A DNA stretch of 64,000 nucleotides from Vulcanimicrobiota bacterium (GCA_963812135.1 CAWETU010000001.1:64001-128000), one strand, 5' to 3'; positions 12,753 to 64,000 are shown, counted from the first letter of the stretch. Notes: generated from the letters alone by a model not told the origin. Translations and numbers: made by a program.

Positions 12753-15700
12753 GTCACTTTATGGACGTGGACCACGAGCGAGTCGCCGCGTGTGACCTCG
12801 ATCGTCTGCGCCAGCGTTTGTTGCGCGATGTAATCGCGCCAACGTTCGATTGCCGCAGCATACGCCTCGTCAGCCGTGATCTTGACGATGATGCGATCGC
12901 TGATGTGCAGCGCCGCGCGTTTGCGCGCGTCTTGGATTTCGCGCACGATTTCGCGCGCGAGTCCCTCCTGCGCGAGCGCTTCGTCGATGCGCGTGTCGAG
13001 CGCGACGAGCATGCCGTCGGACTCGGCCGACGCGTAGCCGCGTGCCGACTTGCTGTCGACCAGCACGTCTTCGGGGTCGAGCTCGAAAACTTCGCCGTTC
13101 GCTGACACCTTGATCTTGCCGCCTTGCGCGACGGTCGTGGCGACGGCGCGCGCGTCCGCGGCGGCGAGCGCTTGGCGCAGCGCACCCAACTTCTTGCCGA
13201 AGCGCGGGCCGAGGCGGGGTAGATTCGGCCGCAGCGCATACTCGATGAACTCCGCATCAAGGCCGACGATCTTGCACGTCCTTGACGTTGAGCTCTTCGA
13301 GCACGAGCGCACGGAAGCGGATCAATGCATCGGACTCGGCAGCCGTTCGCGGGCGCACGTATGCCACCGGCAGCGGTTGTCTCGTCTTCATCTTTGAGGC
13401 GGCACGCACTTGGCGGCCGAGATCAACGGTCTTCTGGGCGACGCGCATCGCGCTGACGAGCGCGCTATCTTCGCGCTCGAGCTGCGCTTGCGGCCACGCC
13501 GCAAGATGCACGCTCTCGGGAGCTTTCTTGTCCAGCGCGCGCACCAAGATCTGGTAGAGCGATTCGGCCAACATCGGCGCGAACGGTGCGGTCAAGAGAG
13601 ACAGCGTGTGCAGCGCTTCGTAGAGCGTGCGATACGCAGCGTTCTTTTCCGCGCCGGTGCTGGACGCCCAGAACCGGTCGCGAGACAGGCGCACGTACCA
13701 ATTGGAGAGTTCGTCGATGAACGTCTCGATCGCGCGCGCGGCGTTTTGCGCGTCGTAGAGCTCCAGCCGCGTCGTCACATCGGTGACCAGCTCGTTGAGC
13801 CGGGCGACCAGCCAGCGGTCGAGATCGTGGCGTTGCTGCAGTCGCACGTCGGCCGGGATACCGACCTGATCGTCGTTCGCGTACAGTGTGAAGAAGTTGA
13901 CCGTGCTCCACAGCGTGTTGAGCAAGGTGTGCGTGCTCTCGCGCACCAGCTCGACGGAACAGCGCTTCCCGGCGCCGGGCGGGCTGCCCGCGACGAAGTA
14001 CCAGCGCAGCGCGTCGGCGCCGAGCGCGTCAAACACTTCCCACGGGTCGAGCACGTTGCCCTTGCTCTTGCTCATCTTCTCGCCGCGCTCGTCGACCACG
14101 TGGCCCAAACAGACGACGTTGCGATACGCCGGCGAGTCGAACATCAGCGTCGCGATCGCATGCAGGCTGTAGAACCAGCCGCGCGTCTGATCGACCGCTT
14201 CGCAGATGAAGTCCGCTGGGAAGCTCTCTTTGAACAGATCGGCGTTCTCGAACGGGTAATGCCACTGTGCGTACGGCATCGAACCCGAGTCGAACCACGC
14301 GTCGATGACTTCCGGCACACGCCGGTATTCGCGACCTTCTACCGTGAACACGACATCGTCGATCGCAGGCCGGTGCAGGTCAAGGTCCGAGAGATCGCGC
14401 CCCGCGCGTTCGGATAGCTCTTTGACCGATCCGATGCAGATGTAATCCTTGCCGTCTGTCCACAGCGGCAGCGGTGTCCCCCAGAAGCGCTCGCGCGAGA
14501 GGGCCCAGTCGACATTGTTCTCAAGCCAATTGCCAAAGCGGCCTTGCTTGACGTTGTCCGGCACCCAATTGACCGCGTCGTTGTTGGCGAGCAGTTGCGT
14601 CTTGAACTCGGTCGTGCGGATGAACCACGCCGTCTTGGCGATGTACAGCAGCGGGTCGTCGGTGCGCCAGCCGAACGGGTACGTATGGCGGATCGTGCCG
14701 GACCTGAACATCAGGTCGCGTTTCTTCAGGTCGGCGATGATCGGCGCGTCCGCATCTTTGAAGAATCGCCCGGCGGCGACGGTGACTTCAGCGACGACGT
14801 GCCCGGTGTAATCGACGCTGTAGTAGATAGGAAGATCCCGCGCCTTGCCGAGCGCGAGATCGTCAGGGCCATACGCCGGCGCGACGTGGACGATGCCGGT
14901 GCCGTCTTCCGTCGTCACGAACGGCGCCGCGATGACGTAGTAGCGGTCCTTCTCGCTCACGCAGTAATCGTACAGCGGCTGATAGCGGGTGCCCGCAAGC
15001 TCACTGCCCTTGATGCGCCGGATCAGGCGCACGGGATCGTCTCCGAATACTCTCTGCAGCAGCGGCTCGGCGACGATCAGCTTTTCGCCTTCGCGTTCGA
15101 CGACCGCGTACTCGACGTCGGGATGCACCGCCAGCGCCATGTTCGCCGGCAACGTCCACGGTGTCGTCGTCCATGCGAGGATCGACGTCGACGGATCGTC
15201 GGCGAGGCGGAAGCGGACGAAAACCGACGGATCGTCGGTCTCGCGATAGCCAAGCGCGACTTCGGCATCTGAGAGCGTCGCGCCGATGCGCGGGTCATAG
15301 GGGACCGATTTGTAATCTTGCTGGATCAGCCCGCGATCCCAGAGCTGTTTGAGCAGCCACCAGACAGTCTCGATGTACGTGTTGTCCAGCGTGATATACG
15401 GATGCTCGAGATCAACCCAGTACGCCATGCGCTCGGTCATCGCGTTCCAGTCGCTGACGTAGCGGAAGACGCTCTCGCGGCAGCGGCGGTTGAATTCTGC
15501 GATGCCGACTTCGGCTTCGAGCCGGCTCTTGTCCAAGATGCCGATCTCTTTTTCGACCTGATGCTCGACCGGCAGTCCGTGCGTATCCCAACCGGCCTTG
15601 CGGCGCACGAACTTTCCGCGCATCGTCCAAAAGCGCGGATAGAGATCTTTGAACGTGCGCGCGAGTACGTGATGAACGCCGGGCCTGCCGTTGGCGGTGG

Positions 15701-15866
15701 GCGGGCCTTCGTACATCGTGTAACGCGGGCCGTGCTTGGTCTGCTCGAGCGATCGCTCGAAGATCTTCGCGTCGCGCCAGAATTCAAGCACCTCGCGCTC
15801 GCGCACGGGCGCGTCGGATAACATGCCTGGTGTCGGGAACTGGTTCTTGCCGAGCGGCTCGATCAT
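12749..15866 (-). CDS. ileS: Isoleucyl-tRNA synthetase, type 2 (apparent +1 indel near 13275)
   Basis: 'YEGPPTANG.PGVHH', 'WTTTPWTLP', 'KMSKSKGN'; the C-terminal part ('EELNVK...LRPNLPRLGPRFGK...EGLAREIVR.IQ..RK') continues in the next frame to 12749. Confidence 0.95.
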
Positions 15867-35317: not shown

Positions 35318-36942
35318 GTGGCGCGCACCGAGCTCACCGGCCTGCTGCGCCGGATCCACGCGGCGTACCGGGAGACGCAGCGCAGCGGTGTGCCCGTCGA
35401 CGAGGTGTTCGAACTCCAAGCACAGGCGCTCTCGCGACGGCGCTTCATCGCGCAAACAACGGCCGCCCTCGCAACCCTAACTAGCGGTCGAATTTATTCG
35501 ACCGTCGCCGCGGCCGCTAAAAGCGCGCCACGCGTCGCGATCGTCGGCGGCGGCCTGGGCGGCGTGACCTGCGCGTACCGTCTTATGCAAGCCGGCATCC
35601 GCAGCACGATCTACGAGGCGGGCGGCGGACTCGGCGGCCGAACCTGGACGTTGCGCGGTTTCTTTGACGAGGGCCAGACAGCAGAGAACGGCGGCGAATT
35701 CATCTCGAGCGAGCATACCGCGACCCGCGCGCTCGCGGCCGAACTTGGCCTGACGCTCGACGACCTGCGCGCCTGGGATGCACAACAACACGGCGCGCAC
35801 GATGTGTATTGGGTGCGGGGCAGACAGTTATCCGATCAGCGCCATGCTGCGCGACTACGGCGCGGTGTTCCCCAAGCTCGAAAAGGCGAACGCGGCCGCC
35901 GGCGTGACTCGCTACGACCACTACACCAAAGCCGGCTATGAGCTGGACCATATGTCGGCGCGCGCATGGATCGAGCGCAACGTGCCCGGCGGCCTGCAGT
36001 CCGATATCGGCTGGCTGCTCGACATCGATGCGACGACCGAGAACGGCGGCGAATCGAGCGACGCAAAGCTCGCTCGAGCTCATCTACATGCTCGCGGACA
36101 TGCCGTCGCTCAATCCTAAAGGCGGCTTCTGGCTGGTGGGGACCGATGAGCGCTATCGCGTGCGCGAGGGCAACGACCAGATGGTCGCGCGCATGGCGCG
36201 CACGCTTTCCCCAGACTCCGTCAATCTCAACACCCGCCTGCAGGCGTTGCGCCGGCGCGCCGACGGCAGCTACGTGTGCACGTTCTCCGCACCGCAACGG
36301 ACGTTCGACGTTTCCGCCGACCACGTCGTGTTGGCGTTGCCGTTCAAGACGTTGCGCGACTGCGATCTGACGCAGGCGGGTTTTTCGCCGGTGAAGATGG
36401 CGGCCATCAAGCAGATGCCGATGGGCACGAACACCAAGCTGCACGCGCAGTTCAAGCAACGCTCGTGGTTCGCGCGCGGCTCGAACGGCGCGACCTACTC
36501 GGACACTGGCTACCAGCAGACGTGGGAGGACACGCGCGCGCAGTCCGGCGTCGCGGGTGTACTGGTGGATTACACCGGCGGCGATCTCGGCGCGTCGTTC
36601 GACGCCCCTTCGTTCGGACCGGCCGCGCCAGCACTCGTCCAGCGCTTCTTGCACCAGCTCGAGCCGGTGTTACCGGGCATCGGCGCGTTGTGGAACGGCA
36701 AAGCATTTCTGGACAACTGGACCAAAGACCGCTGGCACCGCGGCTCTTACTCGTATTGGGGCATCGGCAATTGCACGACGTTCGTCGGCATCGAACCCGT
36801 GCGCCAGGGTAACGTGCACTTCTGCGGCGAGCAGTGCTCGCTCGCGTTCGGCGGCTTCATGAACGGCGCGGTCGAAACAGGCGAGAGCGTCGCGCATGAG
36901 ATCGTGCACGATGTGAAAGGCGCGTCGCTCCATGCCGTTTGA
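35318..36942 (+). CDS. Flavin-dependent amine oxidase, probably Tat-exported (apparent +1 indels near 35825 and 36063)
   Basis: 'SRRRFI' twin-arginine motif, 'VAIVGGGLGG', 'GGRTWT', 'E.GGEFI', 'GSYSYW', 'HFCGEQ.S..F.GFMNGAVETG' spread over three consecutive frames. Confidence 0.85.
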
Positions 36943-38354
36943 AGGCACCGCAGAGACACTGCCGCAGGCGGGGCTGCGCCGAGACATCCTCGGCTTTTGG
37001 CACATCGCCGCGCAGTCGGTCGCCAACATCGCGCCGTCGGCGACGCCGGCGCTCGTCGTCGCGCTGATCTACGGCATCACCACCAACGGCTCGTGGCTCG
37101 CCTACGTCCTCGCGACGCTCATCCTGTTGCTCGTCGCGCTCAACGTGAATCAATTCGCGCGGCGCTCGGTATCACCGGGTTCGCTCTACACGTTCGTCGC
37201 GCAGGGACTCGGGCCGACCTGGGGCGTCATCTCCGGCTGGTCGATGGTCATCGCGTATCTCATCATCGGCGGTTCGGTGCTCGCGGGCTGCGCGAATTAC
37301 GTGACGGTCATCGCGCACGGTCTGGTCGGAACGAAGTTCGACGGCATCTTGACGATCCTCGCGATGCTGGTCGCAGGCATCGGCGCGTGGTTCATCGCGT
37401 ATCGCGACGTCAAGCTCTCGACGCAGCTCATGCTGGCCATCGAATTCGTGTCGATCGCGCTGATCATGACGCTGTCATTCGTCTACTTCATCAAGCGCGG
37501 TGCCGTGATCGACAATGCGCAGCTGACGCTCGCCGGAGTCACACCCGCTAACGTCGGCCACGCGCTCGTGCTGGCGATCTTCAGCTACGTCGGGTTCGAG
37601 AGCGCCGCGTCGCTCGGACACGAGGCCAAGAACCCACTGCACTCGATTCCACGATCGATCCTGTTCACGGTCATCGCGGTCGGCGCGTACTTCGTGTTCA
37701 CCACCTACGTGATCGTCATGGCGTTCCACGGGCAGAATCCGCCGCTCGATCAGTCCACGGCGCCGCTGAACGTGCTCGCGAACCTCGCGGGCATTCCGAT
37801 CTTCGGGCTGCTCATCTCGATCGGCGTGGCGATCGGCTTCTTCGCATGCGCGTTGGCATGCATCACGGCGGGCTCGCGCGTGCTTTTCACGATGTCGCGC
37901 CATGGTCTGTTCTATGCGGCCGCCGGCGACGCGCACGCGAAGCATGCGACGCCGCATATCGCAGTTACCTATGCGGCGATCGCCGTGCTTGCGGGGCCGC
38001 TCGCGCTGCTCGCAAGCCGCTTCGCGCTGCTCGATATCTTCGGCGATCTCGGCACGCTCGGCACGCTCAGCGTGCTGTTCTCGTACGTGCTGGTGAGCAT
38101 CGCGGCGCCCGTGTACTTGTACCGGCGCGGCGAGCTCAAGCCTTCGGCGGTCATCGTCTCTGTGGTCGCGGTGGCGGCGATGATGCGTCGCGATCGTCGG
38201 CACGGTGCTTGCCGGTGCCGCCGCCGCCGCAGAGCTATATCCCAGCACGTCTTCGTCGTGCTGCTCGCGACTTGGGGTGTCGCGCTTCCTTTATCTACGT
38301 TCGCGCGAACCGAAGATCATCCGCGACATCGAAGCCGACCTGATCGCGAGTTAG
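36932..38354 (+). CDS. APC family permease (several apparent +1 indels at 38185-38275)
   Basis: 'AQSVANIAPS', 'PGSLYTFV', 'SYVGFESAASLG.EAKNP...IPR', 'SRVLF.MSR.G'; the corrected frame ends '...IEADLIAS*' at 38354. Confidence 0.85.
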
Positions 38355-38357
38355 CGA

Positions 38358-38861
38358 CTACTTCCCAAGCTTACGCAGTGGTTTGGGCGGGAAGAGCGCG
38401 TTGATCGTCGCTCCGCCGGGCGACCAGCGCTCCACGTCGAGCAGGCACACGCCGCCCTTCTTGAACTCCAGCGCGAGCTCGGTGTTGCCCGCGACGAGAT
38501 AGCCGATCAGCTTTCCGAGCTGGGGCATGTGCCCGACCAGCGCGACGCGCGAAAGACTTCGCAGCGCACGCAGCTCGGCGGCAGTTTTCGCCGGCTCCGC
38601 GTCCGGTTCGAGCGACTTGAGCGTCTTGATCTTGGCGGGGTCGATGTCGTAGGCTTTGCAGATGCAGAGCGCGGTTTGTCGAGCGCGTGCGTAGCCGCTA
38701 TCGAAGATGTCGTCGATCTCGATGTCGATGCGGCACATGCCGCGCGCGACGCGCGCCATCTCCTTCTCGCCTTCTTCAGAAAGCGGACGCAGCGCATCGT
38801 CGGGATACTTCCTCGAATCGGCCTTGCCGGCATCCGCGTGCCGGACGATGATCGCTTCCAT
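38358..38861 (-). CDS. sixA: Phosphohistidine phosphatase SixA family
   Basis: 'IVRHADA', 'D..RPLS.EG', 'RARQTA', 'LVGHMP', 'FKKGG'. Confidence 0.88.
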   Translation of the reverse strand: MEAIIVRHADAGKADSRKYPDDALRPLSEEGEKEMARVARGMCRIDIEIDDIFDSGYARARQTALCICKAYDIDPAKIKTLKSLEPDAEPAKTAAELRALRSLSRVALVGHMPQLGKLIGYLVAGNTELALEFKKGGVCLLDVERWSPGGATINALFPPKPLRKLGK

Positions 38862-39031: not shown

Positions 39032-40458
39032 TTGTTGAAGCGCAGCGCGTTTTGTTTTGCGGCGATTTTCTTCGCCGTGCTTTTCGTCATTGGACGGGCA
39101 CCCGCGTCGGCTGCCATTACGGGCTCGCTCACAGCGACGACGCCGACGTACACCGGGACGTGCCCGACGACCATGAAGTTCACCGGCACCATCTCGGGGT
39201 CGCCTGGCACCACGTTCCAATATAGCTTTATCCATTACATCAGCGGGGCGCAGCAGATCGTGAACGTGGGAGCAGCCACGCTGCCCGCGAGCGGCACCAT
39301 GCCGGTCAACGATTCGATGAGCGTAGCTGCGACGACCGGCGCGAACACATTCGACCAGTTGTGGGTGCACAACATCTCCGGCGCGTTTCAGGCCGATGTC
39401 TATTCCGCGAAAGCAACGTTCTCCGTGACGTGCGGCGCGCAGCCTGGGCCCACGCCGTCAACCGCGGCCGGGGGGTCGAAGTACGCCAAACCAGTGGTAC
39501 CCTTCATCGATCCCGACGATGACGCCGGGAATCCCGCCCGGCCCATCAACATCACGACGAGCGCCGATCCCAAAGTATGCGGCGCGCACATCAGCAATCC
39601 GATCATCGGCGGACTGCTCTGCCAGCCGATCGCCGCATCGAACAAGCTGTTCATCGTCTGGAATTGGCAGCCGCATCCCAAGTGCGCGGCGTGTCCTCAA
39701 GACGTGGATGGTTTCAAGGTCTATCAAACCGATGCGAGCGCCTCGACGATGACGTACTTGAGCAAATCCTCAGCAGGCGCGGGCGTGACCGCGGGCGTGC
39801 TGAACGTACCCGGCGGCGGCTTTCTCTCGAAGTGCTACACGGTGACGGCGTACAAGGGCGCCAAGGAATCGCATCCGGGGTATCGCACGTGCATTGCCGC
39901 TGAGCCCAAGCTCGGCACGACTACCGTGACGTTGCCGGCGGCGCACATCAAGTCGTTCTATTGGTTCCACGACGGGGACCACAACGCATATCAGAACTAC
40001 GGTTATTTGGAAGCCACGCGCGACTTCTATCTTACGAAGGACACTTTGGGAACGACATGATAACCACCGCGCTGGTGCGCGGCGCATTCATGTTCGACTT
40101 AAGTGCGCTCAAAGGCCGCCCTGTGCAAACAGCCACCCTCCATCTGCACGTCAAGGATGGCCAGACAACGAATACCTTCCACCAGACTTCGGTATCGTGC
40201 GGCGACGAAATAGGTACGGGTACGACAGGATGGTGGATCTACGACGACTTCGTTCAAGCGAATTGGCTGGAACCGATATCGAAAGTAGGTCCGAGCGTCG
40301 ATGTCGTCGTGACGGGCCCGGTGCGCAACTGGCTGAACGGCGCGACGAATTATGGGTTCGTGCTTCGCTCGTCGCAGGAAAGCGTGAACTCGGCCGCCAC
40401 TGACATATGCAGCTCCACGTACGATCCGCCCACACTCACCGTGGAGTATTTTAAGTAG
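39032..40458 (+). CDS. Secreted multi-domain hypothetical protein (apparent frameshift near 40050)
   Basis: Signal peptide ('APASA'), Thr/Cys-rich beta domains; continues in another frame with 'FDLSAL....VQTATLHL...VT..VRNWL.G..NYGFVL...PTLTVEY', a DNRLRE-like pattern. Confidence 0.6.
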
Positions 40459-40554: not shown

Positions 40555-40655
40555 GAAGCCTCTCAGCGATTCGACACGGCGGTGCTCCAACGCTTCGAGA
40601 AAACGACGTCGACCTAGCGCTAGGGTGCTATCGGCGTTCTATCCAACATGCCGAC

Positions 40656-42178
40656 ATGCGCATGCGTCATTTTGGTACATGTCTCGCGCTCTTCGTGTTA
40701 CTAGGCTCACGCCGCGACGGCGCGCGCGGACGCCCCGATCACACCCCTCGATATTTTCGCCAAACATGCGGCAGCCGTCGGTTATTCGCTTGCCGATGGT
40801 CGCGCGAAGCCCTACGAGTTCGAGGGATCGACGACCGACGGCGACACCGGCAAGACCACCAAAGTGCGCTACGAGCAAGCTGGAGCTTACTTCCGGCACG
40901 AGCGATCGCATAACGGCAGAACCACCGGCTACGGATTCGACGGCCACGGCTTTTGGAATCAGAACGAGAACGGCAATCTCACGTACGACATCGGATATGG
41001 CCGCCAATACGACATCGCCTGGGCGGTCATCGGCGCCGAGGCGTTCGGACCGGAGCTCTCGCCCGAACTTCTCGACCAATCGGGTGACGACTATATCGTG
41101 CGGATCCATCCATCAGCCGCCGTCCCCGCCGACGTGTACTTCAATAAGAAGACGTTTCTGATCGACCGCGCGATCGTCAGCCCAACGCTTGAGTCCCAGC
41201 TGCGTGATTACCACAACTACGAGCGGCATGGAGCTGTCGATGGTGGCGATGGTGTGGTCGTCGGGCAACTCGACCACGAGGATCTCGAAATTCCAATGGG
41301 ATGCGCCGTTGCCGGCGAGCGATTTCGATATGCCCTCGCAGCGTTCGTATACGACGTTCCCGCCTGTGCCGAGCGTCGTGCCGTTCGACGACAAGCACGA
41401 TTCGATCGTCTTCGAAGCGGCCGTGAACGGTGTAAAGGGGCATTTCATGCTCGACACCGGCGCCGACGGTTTGTACTTCACGCCTGATTTCGCGGCCAAA
41501 GCGCATTTGACGTCTCTGGATGCGAGCTCCGCGATAGGCGCCGGATCCCAGTTCGGCATCTCCGCAACGCGCGTGGCGCATTTCACGGTCGGTGGTGTTG
41601 ACCTTGAGGACTTTTACGCGTCGATTGGGTCAAAGGGCGAGGTCGACGGCTATGTCGGTTATGATTTCCTCGCCCAAGTCGTATGCGACGTCGACTTCGA
41701 CAAGAAGCAGCTGACGATCACCAACCCCGCTGCCTATGCCGGAGATCCAAAACGCGGGGCGCTCGTGTTCGCGCTCGACGATCTCACGCCGCAGATCCAA
41801 GCGCTTGTGAACCAGAAGCAGAAAGTCTACATGAATCTCGACACCGGAGATGGCTCGTCGATGACCTTCGTGCGCACGTTCGTCGACGCGAATCCGGGTA
41901 TCGTCGCGCGCGGCGCTGAGGTGCGCTTCTCCGACGCGGGCGGCGGCACGCAGAGCGGCTATATCGGCACGCTCGACGAGATCGACATCGGACCGTACAA
42001 GTTTTTCGGTCTCGAGGCGGACGTGCTCGGCGGCTTCAAGGGCTTGGCGTCTGAGCGCACCATGCAAGGCCTGATCGGCTACCAGATGTTGCGGCGCTTC
42101 AACCTGACGTTCGACTACCGCGACAACAAAGTATACCTTGACCTGAGCAAGTACGGCAGCGAAACCAAGTTCAAGTAG
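40656..42178 (+). CDS. Secreted retropepsin-like aspartyl protease with two protease domains (apparent +1 indels near 40704 and 41239)
   Basis: Two 'LDTG' motifs, each followed by a 'G.(V/I)G' flap-like segment ('DGYVGYDFL', 'QGLIGYQML'); signal peptide and N-terminal domain lie in the preceding frames. Confidence 0.75.
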
Positions 42179-42205
42179 AGTCTCGAGAGCTCGACTGGAA
42201 AGCAA

Positions 42206-42275
42206 ACCGCGCAGATGCGTTGCAGCTGCGCGGTCTCAGATGGTACCCCTAAGGGAAATGGAATCCCTGTCGCCG
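42206..42275 (-). repeat. Distal copy of tRNA-Glu 3' half + CCA + hairpin (degenerate)
   Basis: 62/70 identical to 43100-43169; the tRNA-derived part has 3 mismatches to tRNA-Glu; 9-bp stem ACCGCGCAG/CTGCGCGGT. Confidence 0.9.
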
Positions 42276-42298
42276 ACGAAACCGGCGGCCTGGAATTC

Positions 42299-43072
42299 CT
42301 ATGGTCCGATGGCGAGCCCCGGGATGCCCGGAGCGCCGGCCAATGGGACCGTGACTGACGGCGTGCTCGACGCGCTGAACGGGGGGACGAAGACGTACAA
42401 GTTGCCGTTGACGGTCACGTAGAGATTGCCGCTGGCGTCGAATTTCAGATACGAGGGGCCGCCAGCAGCAGTGGGAATCGTGAACGCCGGCGTAGTCGCC
42501 GCGCTGAAGGGCGGGTTGTAGACGCTGACGCCGAGGTTTGCAGTCGCGAAAATGCTCCCGCTTGAGCTGATTGCGATGCCATCTGGATGCCTCTTGATCC
42601 ACTCGCGCGCCAAGACGGTAAGATATTCGAAATTCTCCCAGACTGCCTGCCGGCGCGCGATCCGGCGGCGCCGATTGATGAAAGGCGCAAGCCGTTCCCA
42701 GTTGATTGTGATGACAAGCGACCACATGTCTAAGGCGATAGCCTTATCGATAAAGTCATATTTCACAAGCGTGCCGACGTTCTCGAAAAAATTGCATACG
42801 GTGCTGATCGCTTGAAGATCGCGGTCCAGCGGATATTGATCGAGACGCTCGTGCTGTTTCGGATCGGCAAGGACCTTCGGGAGTTCGGTACCCACGAATT
42901 GGATCGCTGCCTGGTAGTGCTCTGATTCGATGGTTTCGCGTAACTCGTTGAGGGCCGCGATCTGGTTGCTGCTGCGCATGTGACGCAGCTGGACAATCGC
43001 AGCGATCGCAGTCGCCGCAATCACGATGAACGTGCCGACGGAACCGATCGTGTTCCAAAGTTCGAGCGACAT
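42299..43072 (-). CDS. DUF4760-like membrane-anchored protein fused to a beta-propeller repeat fragment
   Basis: N-terminal TM, 'CNFFENVG.LVK...ID', 'WENFEYL'; after 'HPDG' the composition switches to '(V)Y.PPFSA..TP' / 'FDASGNLYV' repeats. Confidence 0.6.
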   Translation of the reverse strand: MSLELWNTIGSVGTFIVIAATAIAAIVQLRHMRSSNQIAALNELRETIESEHYQAAIQFVGTELPKVLADPKQHERLDQYPLDRDLQAISTVCNFFENVGTLVKYDFIDKAIALDMWSLVITINWERLAPFINRRRRIARRQAVWENFEYLTVLAREWIKRHPDGIAISSSGSIFATANLGVSVYNPPFSAATTPAFTIPTAAGGPSYLKFDASGNLYVTVNGNLYVFVPPFSASSTPSVTVPLAGAPGIPGLAIGP

Positions 43073-43089
43073 CGTAAGCGATCCGTCTG

Positions 43090-43174
43090 AAAAAGAGAGA
43101 CCGCGCACATGCCTTGCAGCGTCGCGGCCTCAGATGGTACCCCCAAGGGAATTCGAATCCCTGTCGCCGCCTTG
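43090..43174 (-). repeat. Proximal copy of tRNA-Glu 3' half + CCA + terminator-like hairpin
   Basis: 43138-43174 is identical (37 bp) to 43705-43741 of tRNA-Glu; followed on the minus strand by CCA, a GC stem and a U-rich tract. Confidence 0.93.
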
Positions 43175-43196
43175 TTTTAGTGGATGCCGAATACTC

Positions 43197-43625
43197 TTAC
43201 TTCGGCGACCACTCGAATAGCGGGAAGGTTCCCTGCGGGCTGCTCTTCGGCGCTATACAGTGGCCTTGATACGCATAACCGTTCCAGTCCTCGAAGGCTT
43301 GGCACTTCCAGCCGGCTGGTCCGCCGTGAACCGGTTTCGTGTCGAGCCCTTGGCCCGCGGCGATCTTTTGCAGTACGAATTTCTTCACGAAGGTCACCGC
43401 TTGCGCGCACGTCACCGTGCCTTTTCCGCTCGTCGTGACCTTGTACTGGGTTCCAGAATTGTGCGGTGGGTATGAATTCACCCATTGGCGCGACGTGAAA
43501 TCCGGGCAGTACTTCAAATTCAGCTCATCGGCGCGAACCGGGGACCGCTCAATCGAAACCGCACCAAGAAACGCAGCGAGAATGACAAATGCAACTGTAA
43601 CACAAGCGGTTTTCACTGTTAGCAC
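43197..43625 (-). CDS. Small secreted hypothetical protein (4 Cys in the mature part)
   Basis: Hydrophobic leader ending 'VRA|D'; the only substantial ORF between tRNA-Glu and its first 3' repeat; more AT-rich than the flanks. Confidence 0.65.
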   Translation of the reverse strand: MLTVKTACVTVAFVILAAFLGAVSIERSPVRADELNLKYCPDFTSRQWVNSYPPHNSGTQYKVTTSGKGTVTCAQAVTFVKKFVLQKIAAGQGLDTKPVHGGPAGWKCQAFEDWNGYAYQGHCIAPKSSPQGTFPLFEWSPK

Positions 43626-43704
43626 TCCTAATCGATGTGTTCGTGGAAAAATGGTGCGGCCGAAGCGTCTAAGAAAACGCTCCGACCCTTGTGTTGCAAA
43701 AATT

Positions 43705-43777
43705 TACCCCCAAGGGAATTCGAATCCCTGTCGCCGCCTTGAAAGGGCGGTGTCCTAGGCCTCTAGACGATGGGGGC
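43705..43777 (-). tRNA. tRNA-Glu(TTC)
   Basis: GCCCCCATCGTCTAGAGGCCTAGGACACCGCCCT-TTC-AAGGCGGCGACAGGGATTCGAATTCCCTTGGGGGTA; CCA not encoded. Confidence 0.96.
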
Positions 43778-43799
43778 GCGATGCATCTTCGTGGTCGTG

Positions 43800-43872
43800 T
43801 GGGCCCGGCAGGACTTGAACCTGCGACCAACCGGTTATGAGCCGGCCGCTCTAACCACTGAGCTACAGGCCC
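43800..43872 (-). tRNA. tRNA with CAT anticodon, most likely tRNA-Ile2
   Basis: GGGCCTGTAGCTCAGTGGTTAGAGCGGCCGGCT-CAT-AACCGGTTGGTCGCAGGTTCAAGTCCTGCCGGGCCCA; paired G1-C72, body resembles Ile2 tRNAs. Confidence 0.9.
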
Positions 43873-43894
43873 AGGCCGCCCGACGCACCCCCAT

Positions 43895-45668
<1,774 letters not shown>

Positions 45669-47521: not shown

Positions 47522-47613
47522 CGTCATCTCCTTCAGTGTCATTGGAGCCTAGCTGAGCAAAAGCTCCAAGAAGCCCTGCACGTGATGCGTTAGAGGTCGC
47601 TCGGAAACGTATG

Positions 47614-47796
47614 TTAGAGTTGCGTCGCGAGCGCCTGCTTCGCGTGATAAGAAGAGCGGACAACCGGGCCCGATACGACCTGATGATATCCCATCGGCTT
47701 GATGGTTTGCGCGGGCCAGCGGAACGTATCCGGCGTGAGATAGGTCACGACGCCAAGGTGACGCTTGGTCGGCTGCAAGTATTGTCCTACAGTTAA
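47614..47796 (-). pseudogene. lipA: Duplicated 3'-terminal fragment of lipA (60 codons + stop)
   Basis: Translates to LTVGQYLQPTKRHLGVVTYLTPDTFRWPAQTIKPMGYHQVVSGPVVRSSYHAKQALATQL*, 47/60 identical to the LipA C-terminus at 48994-49176; no start codon. Confidence 0.93.
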
Positions 47797-47827
47797 GAAG
47801 AGGCGGACGCCACGAGCGTCCGCCTCT
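47792..47827 (-). terminator. Intrinsic terminator downstream of lipoprotein B
   Basis: 12-bp perfect stem AGAGGCGGACGC/GCGTCCGCCTCT with a 5-nt loop, followed by TCTTAA on the minus strand. Confidence 0.7.
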
Positions 47828-48912: not shown

Positions 48913-48993
48913 TAGGTCTCCTCCAAGTGTCGTTGGGATGCGTGACGAGCAGGAGCGCCTCAGGAAGCCCTGTTCGAGATAGGCCGACGTATG

Positions 48994-49854
48994 CTAGAGC
49001 TGTGTAGTGAATGCCTGTTCGGCGTGGTATGACGAGCGGACGAGCGGGCCCGATACCACCTGATGATAACCCATTGGCTTGATAGCTTGCGCGAACCAGC
49101 GGAACTTGTCGGGGGCGACGAATTCCACCACTTGGAGATGCCGCTTGGTCGGCTGCAGGTATTGCCCTAACGTCAAGATGTCGACGCCCACAGCGCGCAG
49201 ATCGCGCGCCGCTTGCAGCACGTCTTCGTCGGTCTCACCGAGCCCCAGCATGATGCCCGATTTCGTGAACTTGTCGGGGCGCATGCGTTTCGCGTTTGCG
49301 AGCACGCCGAGCGATTGGTCGTAGCCGCAGCGGCGATCGCGCACGTGCGGCGTTAGCGAGCGCGTGGTCTCGATGTTGTGCGCGAACACATCGGGCTCGG
49401 CGTCGATCACCTTCTTGAGCGCGTCCACGTCGCCGCGATAGTCCGAGGTGAGCACTTCGACTTTGACGTGCGGGGTCCGACGCCGGATTGCGCGGATCGC
49501 ATCGGCCATCTGCTGCGCGCCGCCGTCGGGCAGGTCGTCGCGGTCGACGCAGGTGATCACCGCGTAGCTCAGCCCGAGATCTTCGATCGATTGTGCGAGC
49601 TTGAACGCCTCGAGCGGATCCAGTTCATACGGTTTGCCGGTCTTGACGTTGCAGAATCGGCAACCGCGAGTGCACGTATCGCCGAGGATCATGAACGTGG
49701 CGGTGCCGACGCCCCAGCACTCGGCGATGTTGGGGCACATCGCTTCCTGGCAGACCGTGTGCAGCCCGCGGTCCTTGACGATGCCATGCAGCTTGACGTA
49801 GTTGTCGCCGGCCGGCAATTTGACTTTGAGCCACTCGGGCTTGCGTGCGATCAT
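48994..49854 (-). CDS. lipA: Lipoyl synthase
   Basis: 'TVCQEAMCPNIAECW', 'CTRGCRFC', 'LVRSSYHA'. Confidence 0.97.
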   Translation of the reverse strand: MIARKPEWLKVKLPAGDNYVKLHGIVKDRGLHTVCQEAMCPNIAECWGVGTATFMILGDTCTRGCRFCNVKTGKPYELDPLEAFKLAQSIEDLGLSYAVITCVDRDDLPDGGAQQMADAIRAIRRRTPHVKVEVLTSDYRGDVDALKKVIDAEPDVFAHNIETTRSLTPHVRDRRCGYDQSLGVLANAKRMRPDKFTKSGIMLGLGETDEDVLQAARDLRAVGVDILTLGQYLQPTKRHLQVVEFVAPDKFRWFAQAIKPMGYHQVVSGPLVRSSYHAEQAFTTQL

Positions 49855-50534
49855 GCCGAGCTTCGCTCGGCGTCGACACCCGAGCTGCGCTCGGGTACTA
49901 CATCTAATTCAAAAATTGCGATCATTGCGGCCAGCAGCGGAGACTTCGCCTCTGCAACGCTGACCTCCCGGCCGAGCTCGCGCGCGATCGAGGTGACGGC
50001 GACGCCCGGCATGCCGCACGGATTGATCAACTGAAAATACGAGAGGTCGGTGCACACGTCCAGCGCGAGGCCGTGATAGGTCACGCCGGCGCGTACTGCC
50101 GCGCCGATCGACGCGATCTTCGCGCCGTGGACGAAGGCGCCCGCATGATCGGGGCGCTGCTCCCCCGTGATGCCGAACTGCGCGAGCGCCTGGTTGATGC
50201 TGCGCTCCATCTTGCGGACGAAATTTTGGACTTCGCGCAATCGGGGCAGCTTGAAGATCGGATACGCCACGAGTTGGCCGGGGCCGTGATACGTGAGATC
50301 GCCGCCGCGCTCGATCGCATAGTACTCCACACCGCGCCGGCGCAACTCATCGACTGAGACAAGTAGATTCTGGCCTTTGCCGGACTTCCCCATCGTGAGC
50401 ACCGGATCGTGCTCGCAGAACAGCAGCGTGTCGGGCCGTGCGTCGGCGACTCGTTCGGCGTGCATGCGCAGCTGAAGATCCCATGCGGCTTTGTAACCGA
50501 TGCGGCCGAGATCTTCGAAGACTGCGTTCGTCAC
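49851..50534 (-). CDS. lipB: Lipoyl(octanoyl) transferase
   Basis: 'EHDPV.TMG', 'RGGDLTYHGPGQLV.YPI', 'KIASIG', 'INPCG'. Confidence 0.95.
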   Translation of the reverse strand: MTNAVFEDLGRIGYKAAWDLQLRMHAERVADARPDTLLFCEHDPVLTMGKSGKGQNLLVSVDELRRRGVEYYAIERGGDLTYHGPGQLVAYPIFKLPRLREVQNFVRKMERSINQALAQFGITGEQRPDHAGAFVHGAKIASIGAAVRAGVTYHGLALDVCTDLSYFQLINPCGMPGVAVTSIARELGREVSVAEAKSPLLAAMIAIFELDVVPERSSGVDAERSSA

Positions 50535-51958
50535 GTCTTTGCGGGAACGGGTGCCGGCGTGTTGGCGATGTGGATCGCCCGCCCGTGCAGCACCTCGGCG
50601 GCCTCCATGATGGGTTCTGAGAACGTGGGATGCGGATGGATGGTGAGACCGATGTCTTCCGTGGTGGCGCCCATCTCGATCGCCAGCGCCCCTTCGGCCA
50701 CCATCGCCTCGGCCATCGGCGAGAAGATGCCCATGCCGAGCACCAGATCGGTCTTCTTGTCTGCGATGATCTTGACCATGCCGTCGGTCAAACCGATCGT
50801 GCGCGCGCGCCCGAGCGCGGCGAGACGGAACTTGCCGACCGCGATCTCGTAACCCGCAGCTTGGGCCTGCTCCTCGGACATACCGACGGTGGCGACTTGC
50901 GGATCGGTGTACACGCAGTTCGGCATGGCGAGCGGGTCGTAAGCGGATGGCAGACCCGCGATCACCTCGGCCGCCACGACGCCTTCTTTCATGGCTTTGT
51001 GCGCTAGCAACGGCGGGCCGGTGACGTCGCCGACCGCATAGATGTTAGCGATATTCGTCTGGCGCCGCTCGTCGACGGGGATGAAACCGCGCTCCACGTT
51101 CACGCCGACGCGCTCGAGCGCCAACTTGTCGGTGCGCGGCTTGCGGCCGACGGCGACAAGCACTTTCTCGAAGTCCATCGGCTCGGTGATCTCGCCTTCG
51201 AACGTGACGCGCACGCGCTTGCCGATCTCTTGCAAACGCACGGCCTTTGTCTTGAGGAAGATGTTGATGCCTTGTTTCTGCTTGAGCGTCCGCACGAGCA
51301 GATTGGTTATCTCGATATCGGTATCGGCCAGCGCGCGGTCGGCCAGCTCCACCAAGGTCACTTCGGCACCCAGCCGCTTGTAGATCGTGGCGAACTCGAG
51401 GCCTATCACACCGCAGCCCAAGATCAGAATGCTCTTCGGGAGCTCGTTGAGCGCCACGGCGTCGTCGGAATTGAGGATGTTGATGCTGTTGCGCTCGAAG
51501 CCGGGCAGCGCTACGGGCTCAGACCCGGTGGCGATGACGAACGCATCGGCGCTCAGATCTTCGGCGCGTCCGTCTTGCTTCTTGACGCGCACGCGCTTCG
51601 TGTCGGTGAACTCCACGTCGCCGGTCATGTAGTCGACCTTGTTCACCTTGAACAGCGTGTTGATGCCGCTGACCAGATCGTCGATCATCTTCGACTTCCA
51701 CTGGTTGAGCTTGCTGAGGTTGATGGCCGGCGGGCCGCCGAAGTCGATGCCCATGGCGGACGCCTCGCGCGCCGCGGCGATGACCTCGCCGACGTGCAGC
51801 AGCGCCTTGCTCGGCATGCAGCCGACATTGAGGCAGACGCCGCCCAGGCGCTCGCGCTCGATGCACAACACGCTCTTCTTGAGCTGCGCAAGGCGGATGG
51901 CAGCGGTGTAACCGCCGGGGCCGCCGCCGATGACGATCGCGTCGTACTTGGTCGGCAT
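50531..51958 (-). CDS. lpdA: Dihydrolipoyl dehydrogenase (E3)
   Basis: 'GGGPGGY.AAIR', 'GGVCLNVGCMPSK', 'HPHPTFSE'. Confidence 0.96.
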   Translation of the reverse strand: MPTKYDAIVIGGGPGGYTAAIRLAQLKKSVLCIERERLGGVCLNVGCMPSKALLHVGEVIAAAREASAMGIDFGGPPAINLSKLNQWKSKMIDDLVSGINTLFKVNKVDYMTGDVEFTDTKRVRVKKQDGRAEDLSADAFVIATGSEPVALPGFERNSINILNSDDAVALNELPKSILILGCGVIGLEFATIYKRLGAEVTLVELADRALADTDIEITNLLVRTLKQKQGINIFLKTKAVRLQEIGKRVRVTFEGEITEPMDFEKVLVAVGRKPRTDKLALERVGVNVERGFIPVDERRQTNIANIYAVGDVTGPPLLAHKAMKEGVVAAEVIAGLPSAYDPLAMPNCVYTDPQVATVGMSEEQAQAAGYEIAVGKFRLAALGRARTIGLTDGMVKIIADKKTDLVLGMGIFSPMAEAMVAEGALAIEMGATTEDIGLTIHPHPTFSEPIMEAAEVLHGRAIHIANTPAPVPAKT

Positions 51959-51962
51959 GATG

Positions 51963-53276
51963 CTAGCCCTCCATCAACATGACGTCGGGCGCGCCGAGCG
52001 CAGTCGCGACATCTTTGGCGAACTGCGCGGCGACCGCGCCGTCGACGACGCGATGGTCGAACGAAACCGAGAGATACGTCATCTGGCGCACGACGATCTG
52101 GCCATCGCGCACCACCGGTCGAGGCTGGATCGAGTGCGTGCCGAGGATGCCGACCTCCGGCCAGTTGATGACCGGGAACGTGAACAGGCCGCCGACCGAG
52201 CCGACGTTGGTGATCGTGAACGTGCCGGCGCTGATCTCCTCGTGAGAGAGCTTGCCGGCGCGCGCTTTCTCTGCTAGCTCGGCGATCTCGATCGCGAGCT
52301 CGAAGATCGTCTTGTGGTCGGCCTGATGGATGACGGGCACCACGAGGCCGGCATCGGTATTGGCCGCGATGCCGATGTTGTAGTCTTTCTTGAGGATGAT
52401 CTCGTGCTTCTCGTCATCGAGTGACGCGTTCATGAACGGGTGGCGCTTGAGCGCGTAACACGCCGCTTTGACGAAGAACGGCAGATACGTGAGCTTGATG
52501 CCGCGCTCGGCGGCAGCTTCTTTGGCGCGCGCTCGCATCGCCACGAGCTCGGTGACATCGGCCTCGTCGACGTGCAACGTGTGCGCTGCGGTCTGTTTGC
52601 TGTGCACCATGTGCTCGGCGATGACGCGACGCAGGCCGCGCAGCGGCACGCGCTCGGTCTCGCCGCTCGGCGCCGGGAGCGCGCGAGCCGGAGTCGACGG
52701 CCGAGTAGGCTCGGCCGCTACCGACGTCGCGCCCGCGGCGACGCGCTCGATGTCCTCGCGGCGGATCCGTCCACCTTCGCCCGACCCGCGCACATTGTTC
52801 AGATCGACGCCCTTTTCGCGCGCGAACTTGCGCACAGCAGGCGCGGCCATCGGCCGGCCCTGCGGTCCGAGGATCGCGCTCTCGGATGGCGCGACGGTGC
52901 CCGCCTGTCCGTTGCCGGTCTTGGCCTTCGAGGGTTTGGCGGTATCTACTGGAGTTTTCGGCTGAGCAAGCTCAGCCGCTACAGGCGCTGCAGCTGCCGG
53001 CTGTGCTTTGCTTGCGCCATGATCGGCGAGCGTCTCGCCCTCTTTGCCGAAGATCGCGATCGGCTTGCCGATCGGCACCACTTCGCCTTCCTTGGCGACC
53101 TGCTTGAGCAAGATGCCTGCAAACGGCGATGGGATCTCCACCGTCACCTTGTCGGTCATGACTTCGACGAGCGGCTGGTCCTCTTTGACGTGGTCGCCTT
53201 CATTGACGAGCCACTTGACGATTTCGCCTTCGATGACCGACTCGGCGAGTTCGGGCATCTCGTATTCGACCGGCAT
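51963..53276 (-). CDS. Dihydrolipoamide acyltransferase (E2)
   Basis: Lipoyl domain 'EVMTDKV', E3-binding 'AAPAVRK.ARE', catalytic 'FDHRVVDG'. Confidence 0.94.
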   Translation of the reverse strand: MPVEYEMPELAESVIEGEIVKWLVNEGDHVKEDQPLVEVMTDKVTVEIPSPFAGILLKQVAKEGEVVPIGKPIAIFGKEGETLADHGASKAQPAAAAPVAAELAQPKTPVDTAKPSKAKTGNGQAGTVAPSESAILGPQGRPMAAPAVRKFAREKGVDLNNVRGSGEGGRIRREDIERVAAGATSVAAEPTRPSTPARALPAPSGETERVPLRGLRRVIAEHMVHSKQTAAHTLHVDEADVTELVAMRARAKEAAAERGIKLTYLPFFVKAACYALKRHPFMNASLDDEKHEIILKKDYNIGIAANTDAGLVVPVIHQADHKTIFELAIEIAELAEKARAGKLSHEEISAGTFTITNVGSVGGLFTFPVINWPEVGILGTHSIQPRPVVRDGQIVVRQMTYLSVSFDHRVVDGAVAAQFAKDVATALGAPDVMLMEG

Positions 53277-53297
53277 TGCTTTCCTCGATCCGCGAGT

Positions 53298-54296
53298 TTA
53301 GAAGTTGAGCGTTTTCTTGATGCCGCGCACCACGCGTTCGGCGCTTGGCATGTACGCCTTCTCAAGCGCGTACGGGAACGGCGTATCCCAGCCGGTGACG
53401 CGCACGATGGGGCCCTCGAGGTGCTCGATCGCGTTCTCGGCGAGAAACGCGGAGATCTCACCCATGTAGCCGCCGATGCGCGGCGCTTCTTGGAGCAAGA
53501 CGACGTGACCGGTCTTGCCGACCGACGCGAGGATGGCTTCGGTGTCGTAGGGCTGCAGCGTACGCAAGTCGATCACTTCGACCTCCACGCCGTCTTTCTC
53601 CATCGCCGTCGCGGCTTCCAGCGCGACCGGGATCATCGCGCCGTACGCGATGACGGTGACGTGTTTGCCTTCGCGCGCGATCGCCGCCTTGCCGAGCGGT
53701 ACTTCGTACGGCCCTTCGGGCAACTCGCTCTTGACCGCACGATAGATCTTCTTCGGCTCCATGAAGAGCACGGGGTCGTTGTCGCGTATCGACGCGATGA
53801 GCAGCCCCTTCGCATCATACGGATTGCTCGGCACGACGACTTTGATGCCGGGCGTGGCCACGTAGTACGCCTCGGGCGACTGCGAGTGATAACTGCCGCC
53901 ACGCACGCCGCCGCCATACGGCGATCGCACGACCATCGGCACTTGGAATTCGCCGGCGGAACGATAGCGCAGTTTCGCGGCCTCGGAGACGAGCATGTCG
54001 AAGCCCGGGTACAGGAAGTCGATGAACTGGATCTCGGCGATCGGACGTAGTCCGTAAAGCGCCATCCCGATGCCCGCGCCGATGATGCCAAGCTCGGCGA
54101 GCGGCGTGTCGATGACGCGCTCCTTGCCGAACATGTCGATCAGCCCTTCGGTGACCAGGAAGACGCCGCCGCGCGGGCCGATATCCTCGCCCAGCGTCAC
54201 GACGTTCTCGTCGCGCGTCATCTCATCGATGAGCGCGGAACGGATGGCTTGCACCATCGTATACGTCTGTTTTTTCTCGGCTTGAACCGTTGCCAT
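53298..54296 (-). CDS. 2-oxoacid dehydrogenase E1 beta subunit (pyruvate or branched-chain)
   Basis: 'GEDIG..GGVF.VT', 'DTPLAE.GI.G', 'EIQF.DF', 'HSQSPE'. Confidence 0.93.
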   Translation of the reverse strand: MATVQAEKKQTYTMVQAIRSALIDEMTRDENVVTLGEDIGPRGGVFLVTEGLIDMFGKERVIDTPLAELGIIGAGIGMALYGLRPIAEIQFIDFLYPGFDMLVSEAAKLRYRSAGEFQVPMVVRSPYGGGVRGGSYHSQSPEAYYVATPGIKVVVPSNPYDAKGLLIASIRDNDPVLFMEPKKIYRAVKSELPEGPYEVPLGKAAIAREGKHVTVIAYGAMIPVALEAATAMEKDGVEVEVIDLRTLQPYDTEAILASVGKTGHVVLLQEAPRIGGYMGEISAFLAENAIEHLEGPIVRVTGWDTPFPYALEKAYMPSAERVVRGIKKTLNF

Positions 54297-55576: not shown

Positions 55577-56050
55577 ATGATGAGCGTCGTTTGTGTGCTC
55601 CAACTGCTGCTGTTGTTGGCCACGAACCCGACCACGCAGCAGTTTCATCCGACATCGAGCGCCCGTTACGTCATCGCGACCAACGGCGCCGCGATGGGTG
55701 GGTTCTCCGAGGTGAGCGGGTTGACCACCGACACGGATGTGGCGGAGTATCGTGAGGGGTCCGACACGCAAACCCACACGAAATCTCTGACCGGATTGCA
55801 CAAGTACACAAGCATCACGTTGAAGCGCGGCACGGTCAGCAACTCCGGATTCTACGATTGGTATAAGAACAAGGGGCTGATGGATGTCTCCCTCAAGGCG
55901 GTCGCGCCCAGCGGCCAGCCGCTCACCTATCACTTGCGCGGCTGCAAGCCGACGAAGTACACCGGGCCGCCACTAACCGGCAGCGGTTCGGGCGACGTCG
56001 CGATCGAAGAACTCGTCTTGAGCTGCGAGTCCATCACGCTCGTCAAGTAA
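55577..56050 (+). CDS. Phage tail tube protein (T4 gp19-like / eCIS tube family) with hydrophobic N-terminal leader
   Basis: 'GGFSEVSGL......EYREG......L.GL.KY..ITLKRG......FYDW' and 'P.KYTGP.L.....VAIEEL.L..E'; leader 'MMSVVCVLQLLLLLA'. Confidence 0.85.
   Translation: MMSVVCVLQLLLLLATNPTTQQFHPTSSARYVIATNGAAMGGFSEVSGLTTDTDVAEYREGSDTQTHTKSLTGLHKYTSITLKRGTVSNSGFYDWYKNKGLMDVSLKAVAPSGQPLTYHLRGCKPTKYTGPPLTGSGSGDVAIEELVLSCESITLVK

Positions 56051-61216: not shown

Positions 61217-61220
<4 letters not shown>
60804..61220 (+). CDS. acpS: Holo-[acyl-carrier-protein] synthase
   Basis: 'IIGLGTDVAEVER', 'FTPEE', 'AG.FAAKEA..KA', 'GKP', 'TISHS'. Confidence 0.92.

Positions 61221-64000
<2,780 letters not shown>

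Follow-up and report, generated by a model that had tools for sequence, protein, structure and literature searches.

A tRNA-Glu locus with two displaced tRNA 3' halves in an uncultured soil bacterium of the Vulcanimicrobiota: a candidate for decayed, tandemly accreted tRNA islands

Layout of the tRNA-Glu locus

In the present study, we analysed a 64,000-nucleotide stretch of DNA (CAWETU010000001.1:64001-128000, assembly GCA_963812135.1; hereafter the window) from an uncultured soil bacterium whose genome measures 2.79 Mb and is 98.4% complete. This genome is labelled G000; other labels with G denote relative genomes, and labels with L denote relative loci or contigs, many of which are metagenomic. 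On the minus strand, eno was followed by a pair of tRNA genes. The first of these (43799-43872, minus strand) carries a CAT anticodon and was assigned to Met by ARAGORN; it resembles tRNA-Ile2 and, we presume, may be one. It was kept upstream of tRNA-Glu(TTC) in 19 of 20 relative loci, the remaining locus (L020) being a tRNA-Glu(CTC) site. The second is the intact tRNA-Glu(TTC) (43705-43777, minus strand), which has no encoded CCA and whose 3' half would be a replacement supplied by an element (attL). It is followed on the same strand by a left arm (43646-43704), presumably element-borne, whose hairpin at 43687-43658 has a 13-bp stem, and by the cargo of unit 1, a gene for a 139-aa protein with a hydrophobic N-terminus (43197-43616). 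Next come a 10-nt stretch (43175-43184, minus strand), tentatively read as a right-arm remnant from its weak resemblance to the arms of G011 and G001, and fragment 1 (43135-43174, minus strand), a perfect copy of tRNA-Glu positions 37-73 plus CCA. Behind fragment 1 lies the more diverged copy of a hairpin followed by a T run (43097-43131, minus strand), which was identified as host-type from its folding and from unoccupied relatives.

The second unit is occupied by a 257-aa ORF on the minus strand. Its first part (165 aa, 42578-43072) matched the Pfam family DUF4760 (E 7e-20), and a tail of 94 codons plus stop (42299-42580) corresponds to the C-terminus of a beta-propeller (NHL/SBBP-like) lipoprotein, fused in frame. 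The original prediction of a DUF4760-like gene was thus right for the first part, but the chimeric nature of the ORF had been missed. The unit closes with a 9-nt right-arm remnant (42283-42291, minus strand), whose motif precedes displaced fragments in G001, in G006 and at tRNA-Glu(CTC) of G000, and with fragment 2 (42241-42275, minus strand), a decayed tRNA-Glu 3' half plus CCA that would be the older displaced native end. The better-kept copy of the native hairpin (42204-42237, minus strand) then lies between convergent genes, the next being a double aspartyl-protease-domain gene on the plus strand (40864-42178). This gene was split by a frameshift in the window and was a single ORF in G005 and G006; it was the native downstream neighbour in G005, G006, L048 and L088.

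A BLAST search against the genome matched fragment 1 (43174-43138) to tRNA positions 37-73 at 37/37 (E 1e-14), and fragment 2 (42275-42244) was identical to tRNA-Glu at 29/32. The two 70-bp units of fragment plus flank were 62/70 identical (89%) at a spacing of 894 bp. These values, together with the CCA and hairpin behind each copy and the CCA-less intact tRNA, reproduced what had been reported of the repeats. The hairpins behind fragments 1 and 2 folded at -23.1 and -21.5 kcal/mol, respectively, values obtained with no shuffle control, and likely persist as terminators; a terminator consensus scan of 42000-44000 scored none, including both of these hairpins. The units of the window measured 567 and 894 bp. 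Fragment 1 was covered together with its two flanks (42992-43376), at 2 differences, by a contig from a second study. A further contig, from a run that is possibly the source sample, covered the fusion point and fragment 2 (41985-42631, 5 differences). Because independent contigs bridged both fragments, the layout was not mis-assembled.

Elsewhere in the window, frameshifted or split genes were observed at 12752-15866, 35318-36942, 36932-38404, 39032-40458, 40864-42178 and 61217-62783 (IleS tail, amine oxidase, amino-acid permease, protease and YjeF/kinase), and they probably reflect long-read indel errors. A 192-bp direct repeat (77%; 47607-47798 and 48987-49178) spanned the beginnings of two beta-propeller lipoprotein genes that lie in tandem upstream of ndk and eno. 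A T4 gp19-like tail tube protein (PF06841, E 4e-23) was encoded at 55577-56047 on the plus strand, between dehydrogenase E1 and aldehyde dehydrogenase genes; a 193-aa ORF of unknown nature adjoined it, and there was no further phage-tail family among the scanned window ORFs.

Host flank, putative element arms and the likely history of the two units

In G002, G003, G004 and G005, and in six metagenome contigs (L047, L048, L077, L083, L087 and L088), the intact tRNA-Glu ended in CCA and was followed by the same hairpin as that behind both window fragments. The tRNA-Glu of the window, G001, G006 and L050 had no CCA and was followed by a common arm of ~60 bp with its own hairpin; a looser resemblance to this arm was found in L041. 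Since CCA and hairpin are present at unoccupied sites, they are host sequence that was displaced downstream, and the CCA-less end on the intact tRNA-Glu would be the incoming, element-borne replacement. It had been proposed that a replacement tRNA 3' end, complete with CCA, came with each unit; the unoccupied sites of G002-G005 reverse this assignment. The empty sites L048 and L088 call for some caution, as the assembly of short reads can create false joins at tRNAs. The contig L103 is likely such a chimera, mis-joined at the tRNA pair: its eno part was 73% and its downstream part 99.5% identical to G004, and its row was misplaced on the enolase tree, so that counts of changes along this tree were set aside. 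The slot behind the hairpin was found swapped, with no tRNA duplication, in L077, L087 and L047.

Judged from its sequence, unit 1 is a one-gene islet bounded by att sites. The 139-aa protein matched no Pfam or NCBIfam family and is likely secreted. Matches were found in 9 of 250 other genomes of the class and in 0 of 6 of the genus (one genome per species); there were three unnamed homologues, the Atlas matches were to hypothetical proteins only, and the viral contigs gave no match. A homologue of 43% identity in L115 (G008:C9:62595-62999) has an integrase and a piece of tRNA-Asn as neighbours at ~3.7 kb, which hints that islands carry this family. The gene was common only to the sister contig L050, where it was 93% identical at the nucleotide level, and near-identical cassettes were not seen across the phylogeny as sampled here, at one genome per species. 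This identity was at background level (eno 91%, protease end 93.5%), as expected under vertical descent. A faster exchange of the gene (third positions 123/140 versus 331/432 for eno) was considered and rejected, as neighbouring windows were also 91-96% identical.

Two other genus members, G001 and G006, carried the left arm of the window with one unrelated gene each. Their units measured 802 and 710 bp, with a right arm of 60-70 nt and fragments beginning at tRNA position 30. In the 710-bp unit of G006, the fragment was 44/44 and both arms were present. A precise empty site was present in L048 and L088, which are 99.6-100% identical to G006 but perhaps not independent contigs. On the enolase tree, G006 and L088 were sisters of the empty-site G005 and L087 with full support; nested among empty-site lineages, G006 most simply gained its unit. 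The right-arm motif also preceded fragments at tRNA-Glu(CTC) in G000 and G006; a looser form of the right arm was present in G011. The window has kept its att cores and left arm, with right arms of 9-10 nt versus ~60-70 nt in G001 and G006. The right arm of unit 1 was cut to at most 10 nt and its fragment begins at position 37, a start that a slip between a 6-nt repeat in the arm and the tRNA would give. Across close relatives, the cassettes at the tRNA-Glu site differed in number and nature; the comparison with relatives that the original prediction had called for thus revealed an arrangement that is not fixed.

The history of unit 2 was read from L050, a metagenome contig 92% identical to the window over 2.8 kb. 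In L050, the tRNA, left arm and 139-aa gene were followed directly by a full 177-aa DUF4760 gene, a 164-aa DUF1036 gene in reverse orientation and a complete propeller gene with one frameshift, and then by fragment 2, the hairpin and the protease gene; fragment 1 was absent. The DUF4760 part of the window does not have the last 12 aa of the 177-aa protein. The last 94 aa of the chimera were 62-63% identical to the C-termini of full beta-propeller lipoproteins in G002 and G004, whose genes sit directly behind tRNA, CCA and hairpin. Relative to L050, the window is short of 1,285 bp, a stretch bounded by 5-bp microhomologies, and has 112 bp more, which comprise fragment 1 with its CCA and hairpin. 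A 1,285-bp deletion thus likely accounts for the DUF4760::beta-propeller fusion, and unit 2 would be a three-gene block cut down; its counterpart in L050 spans 2.1 kb (2.6 kb as measured in the survey of tRNA-Glu loci described below). A contig of run X2 matched the propeller tail at 2 differences and had 158 other letters upstream, which hints that some strains do not carry the fusion. The proposal of single-gene cassettes was not supported for unit 2; unit 1 does hold one gene and stands behind the same left arm as the one-gene units of G001 and G006.

Fragment 2 shares two substitutions with L050; it had therefore decayed before the two lineages split, and the distal copy is the older one, as originally supposed. 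It is preceded by the 9-nt right-arm remnant, for which the chance of occurrence in a 15-nt slot was ~5e-4 for a motif picked after it had been seen. As to fragment 1, we lean somewhat towards its loss in L050 rather than its gain in the window. Loss in L050 is favoured by the 10 nt before it, which look like the arm and can be traced neither to the tRNA nor to L050. However, the fragment is perfect despite a difference of ~8% between window and L050, so it may be a late gain, and the DUF4760 part was more diverged from L050 (83% nucleotide identity) than its neighbours (88-94%), which also runs counter to loss. Unit 2 opens on host-type flank, and its far end lies in a cut arm, 10 bp behind the stop codon; such borders fit either a captured flank or homology-facilitated illegitimate recombination.

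Integrases and other tRNA sites

No integrase or transposase family was found in the window among 51 ORFs searched with Pfam and enolase searched with NCBIfam; these searches covered the 57 ORFs picked except for 40642-41109 and five at 48997-54296. No integration or transfer genes were found at the locus. The genome held a single PF00589 match, a 315-aa protein 1.4 Mb away whose best NCBIfam hits were of the XerC/XerD type, and a genome-wide search with our own integrase profile (22 sequences, one of which came from the G016 region L110) added only a 66-aa integrase C-terminus at tRNA-Thr(CGT). The absence of an integrase thus stood for the scanned window ORFs, with an Xer-like protein and a remnant present elsewhere in the genome. 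Neither a serine recombinase nor a resolvase was found in the genome; ComEC and DprA were present. The genus genomes held 1-4 PF00589 matches each. G010, G013 and G016, which are unpublished, were included in the tallies, and no conclusion depends on them.

Integrases were found at tRNA-Glu in related DNA. In G047, a member of the same family, a 17-kb tRNA-Glu island contained a 401-codon tyrosine-integrase frame ending just before a fragment that starts at position 31. A 10.6-kb tRNA-Glu island on one metagenome contig (L051, L085) encoded a 370-aa integrase in the corresponding place, and the two integrases were 51% identical. The arms of both islands looked different from those of the window when compared by eye, unaligned. 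A weak integrase remnant (E 0.001) lay between tRNA-Glu and tRNA-Val in G003. G047-type integrases at E<=1e-60 were present in 3 of 251 class genomes and in 0 of 6 genus genomes. The alignment of tRNA-Glu integrases detected only G047 itself in the genome contigs and 60 distant integrases (22-34% identity) in the viral contigs. The right-arm pattern occurred in 3 of 32 family genomes, all within the genus, with 0 matches in viral contigs and 0 in metagenome contigs. An integrase-bearing parent with window-type arms was accordingly not found among family genomes, viral and metagenome contigs and class genomes. The search for circle junctions, suggested at the outset, was negative among the 14 joints listed for 4 of 20 runs, with contigs at depth 2-6; one contig joined 42037 to 43092 with unknown letters between, and it may come from a related species.

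To place the locus, we surveyed 92 deduplicated tRNA-Glu loci (15 duplicates dropped; L110 of G016 being one of the loci), of which 64 had at least 2 kb downstream; loci with no or two intact tRNA-Glu genes were left out. Fragments were found at 18 of the 92 loci and defined 23 units, a count that includes a probably spurious row of G004 (positions 5-50, 74%) and the weak L081. The fragments began at tRNA positions 29-35, in the anticodon stem-loop, in 12 of 23 cases, and fragment-like matches upstream or on the opposite strand numbered 0 across the 92 loci. Both observations bear out the earlier reading of the fragments as att-type scars. Fourteen of the 23 units were at most 1 kb long, and none of these 14 had an integrase remnant; an integrase was present in one of the 23 units. 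The genus accounted for 12 of the 14 small units, which are kin and not independent.

The recommended genome search did recover other displaced tRNA pieces. Fragments of Ala(CGC), Glu(CTC), Val(GAC), Asp, Pro(GGG) and Thr(CGT) were detected, and the islands at other tRNAs of the genome were mostly multi-gene blocks of 2-7 kb. The tRNA-Glu(CTC) stack (G000:C1:1113372-1114400) comprised two fragments and units of 446 and 471 bp, the first with a right arm as in G001 and G006; among the other genus genomes with this locus, 4 of 5 carried 1-3 fragments. The Glu(CTC) left arms were short and not common among genomes. At tRNA-Asp (G000:C1:1291033-1307265), four Asp 3' fragments and a perfect 38-bp tRNA-Asn 3' fragment lay within one stack, 700 kb from the tRNA-Asn gene itself. 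The fragment at tRNA-Thr(CGT) (G000:C5:228637-231237) was of the 5' type (positions 1-35) and lay 2.6 kb upstream of the tRNA, which the 66-aa integrase C-terminus adjoins; a DUF4760 gene stood beside this fragment. DUF4760 genes were present in 22 copies in G000, some in tandem, and in several tRNA-Glu(CTC) units of relatives. An enrichment of these genes near tRNAs was not supported (4 of 22 within 3 kb in G000, 1.6 expected, P 0.08).

Explanations of the locus and their meaning

With moderate confidence, we read the locus as decayed, tandemly accreted tRNA islands, that is, as a CIME-like additive island shaped by erosion plus allele exchange. Tyrosine-integrase elements inserted in turn at the anticodon stem-loop likely left the two tRNA-Glu 3' copies as attR-type scars, since the starts of the fragments there point to tyrosine-integrase crossovers; this stem-loop is a recognised integrase crossover class in the account given in parts of PMC4383910. 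The DNA between the scars is likely cargo kept after integrase loss and then reshaped by deletion and allele exchange, and the tRNA-Glu locus is probably an ordinary hotspot of gene gain. In such a course of events, a first element would insert and displace the native 3' half, CCA and hairpin, giving fragment 2. A tRNA-proximal allele from another strain, with CCA, hairpin and genes including the beta-propeller, would then be placed before this scar, either by capture of a donor flank or by recombination anchored in the eno-tRNA region, whose second, illegitimate joint would lie 10 bp past the stop codon of the propeller gene. A further element inserting at the tRNA would supply the left arm and the 139-aa gene and give rise to fragment 1. 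Finally, the 1,285-bp deletion between 5-bp microhomologies would fuse DUF4760 to the propeller tail in the window lineage, and a deletion of ~112 bp would remove fragment 1 in L050. Against erosion stand the missing parent with these arms and the small units, which are cleaner than random erosion suggests; the G006 unit in particular has a 44/44 fragment and both arms and is absent from same-species contigs, which leaves little time for erosion.

Integron arrays are polarised rows of small gene-sized units with an integrase, IntI, and attC sites. The window likewise holds small gene-sized units in a polarised row, but the genome encodes no IntI (the integron-integrase model TIGR02249 scored the 315-aa tyrosine recombinase at 128.6 bits versus a cut-off of 265). 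The separators are tRNA 3' halves and the host hairpin of empty sites rather than attC, as judged from tRNA matches and empty-site sequences, and the cargo has its own leader sequence. The proposed integron-like system without an integrase was also not supported in view of the tRNA-Glu islands with an integrase beside the displaced fragment in related DNA. Such islands partly answer the refuting condition set for the proposal, even though their arms are different.

Closer parallels are found among tRNA islands. According to passages of PMC4383910, Islander islands show an intact tRNA, cargo, a same-orientation 3' fragment downstream and the anticodon-class crossover, as here; the definition given there requires an integrase and a length of 2-200 kb, so the integrase-less window units of 0.57 and 0.89 kb would be filtered out. 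In the CIMEs and ICESt1-related elements of Streptococcus thermophilus, as portrayed in sections of the review PMC5704250, integration and transfer genes are lost and att sites kept, and a later element inserts at the same gene end, as would have happened here. The window differs in that its right arms are truncated and unit 2 opens with host-type flank rather than an element arm, and mobilisation in cis would be hypothetical for it. With regard to CIME descent from an integrase-bearing ICE or IME, islands were present at tRNA-Glu in relatives, but none was found with the window arms. The tRNA islands and tycheposons of Prochlorococcus, in the portions of 10.1101/2020.12.28.424599 that concern them, show scattered partial tRNAs with the newest element proximal, are mostly element-less and retain captured donor flank, which fits unit 2. 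The window, from a different phylum, has no tycheposon replication or packaging genes, and its units are far smaller. The additive flexible genomic islands of Alteromonas have tRNA repeats behind cassettes, as excerpts of PMC4898812 describe; their hallmark is the sharing of near-identical cassettes between species, of which we found no case among genomes sampled at one per species. Our literature search returned nothing specific on islands of this lineage, integrase-less tRNA cassettes or DUF4760, which does not imply absence from print.

Compared with decayed accreted islands, it seems unlikely that one-gene, att-bounded minicassettes of 0.35-0.9 kb were mobile themselves through an integrase acting in trans from a passing phage or ICE. 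In its favour, one left arm precedes a different single gene in each of G000/L050, G001 and G006, and one right arm recurs at Glu(TTC) and at Glu(CTC), across G000, G001 and G006 and, more loosely, G011. The position of G006 among empty-site lineages, with its own species empty, makes a repeated gain of the arm type likely, and 12 of the 14 units of at most 1 kb fall within the genus. However, unit 2 is an eroded block and not such a cassette, no more than 10 nt of the right arm remain in unit 1, and the Glu(CTC) left arms are short and not common. Divergence from L050 is similar for the 139-aa gene and its neighbours, no backward joint was listed in the contigs of the four runs (depth 2-6), and no cognate integrase was found in the genome contigs, the viral contigs or the 251 class genomes.

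A RecA-dependent insertion with two anchors appears more improbable still. After one integrase scar, a transformed donor tRNA and 3' fragment would both pair with the recipient tRNA, and a unit would loop in; short units would be favoured and always added tRNA-proximally. The tRNA was 73/73 identical across the genus, with eno and flank at 80-83%, making it the best cross-species anchor; ComEC and DprA were present with no serine recombinase or resolvase, and the DNA on both sides of the G006 unit was 99.6-100% identical to the empty-site contigs. Against this, the second anchor measures just 37-47 bp, competence of the lineage is a presumption, and the model of homology-facilitated illegitimate recombination, as summarised in part of PMC5361080, makes such events orders of magnitude rarer than ordinary recombination; the end product is indistinguishable from integrase action by sequence alone. 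A local duplication or assembly artefact unrelated to integrative elements, which the frameshifts typical of error-prone long-read assembly and the inclusion of host flank in the 70-bp units might suggest, is largely refuted and very unlikely in view of the bridging contigs, the presence of fragment 2 in L050, the clustering of starts in the anticodon stem-loop and the lack of fragments upstream or on the other strand.

Both mobile explanations rest mainly on the G006 unit, not on the window. Taken together, we regard it as possible, though doubtful, that one-gene, recombinase-less units of 0.35-0.9 kb move between strains or species and always land at tRNA-Glu, through an integrase in trans or RecA acting on tRNA and scar; unit 1 and the 710-bp unit of G006 would then be examples, and unit 2 would not. 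If this were true, old integration scars would be permanent docking sites for gene gain, and integrase-free genomes could go on acquiring genes at tRNAs by way of units that fail the size and integrase filters of island finders. As a small substrate, the G006 unit lends itself to direct testing. In the ordinary case of decayed, accreted islands, the locus would document the shrinkage of tRNA islands to sub-kilobase remnants, with a sister lineage as the 'before' picture. Such eroded remnants would mimic single-gene cassettes and create a chimeric gene, which advises caution for many 'integron-like tRNA arrays' flagged from single genomes.
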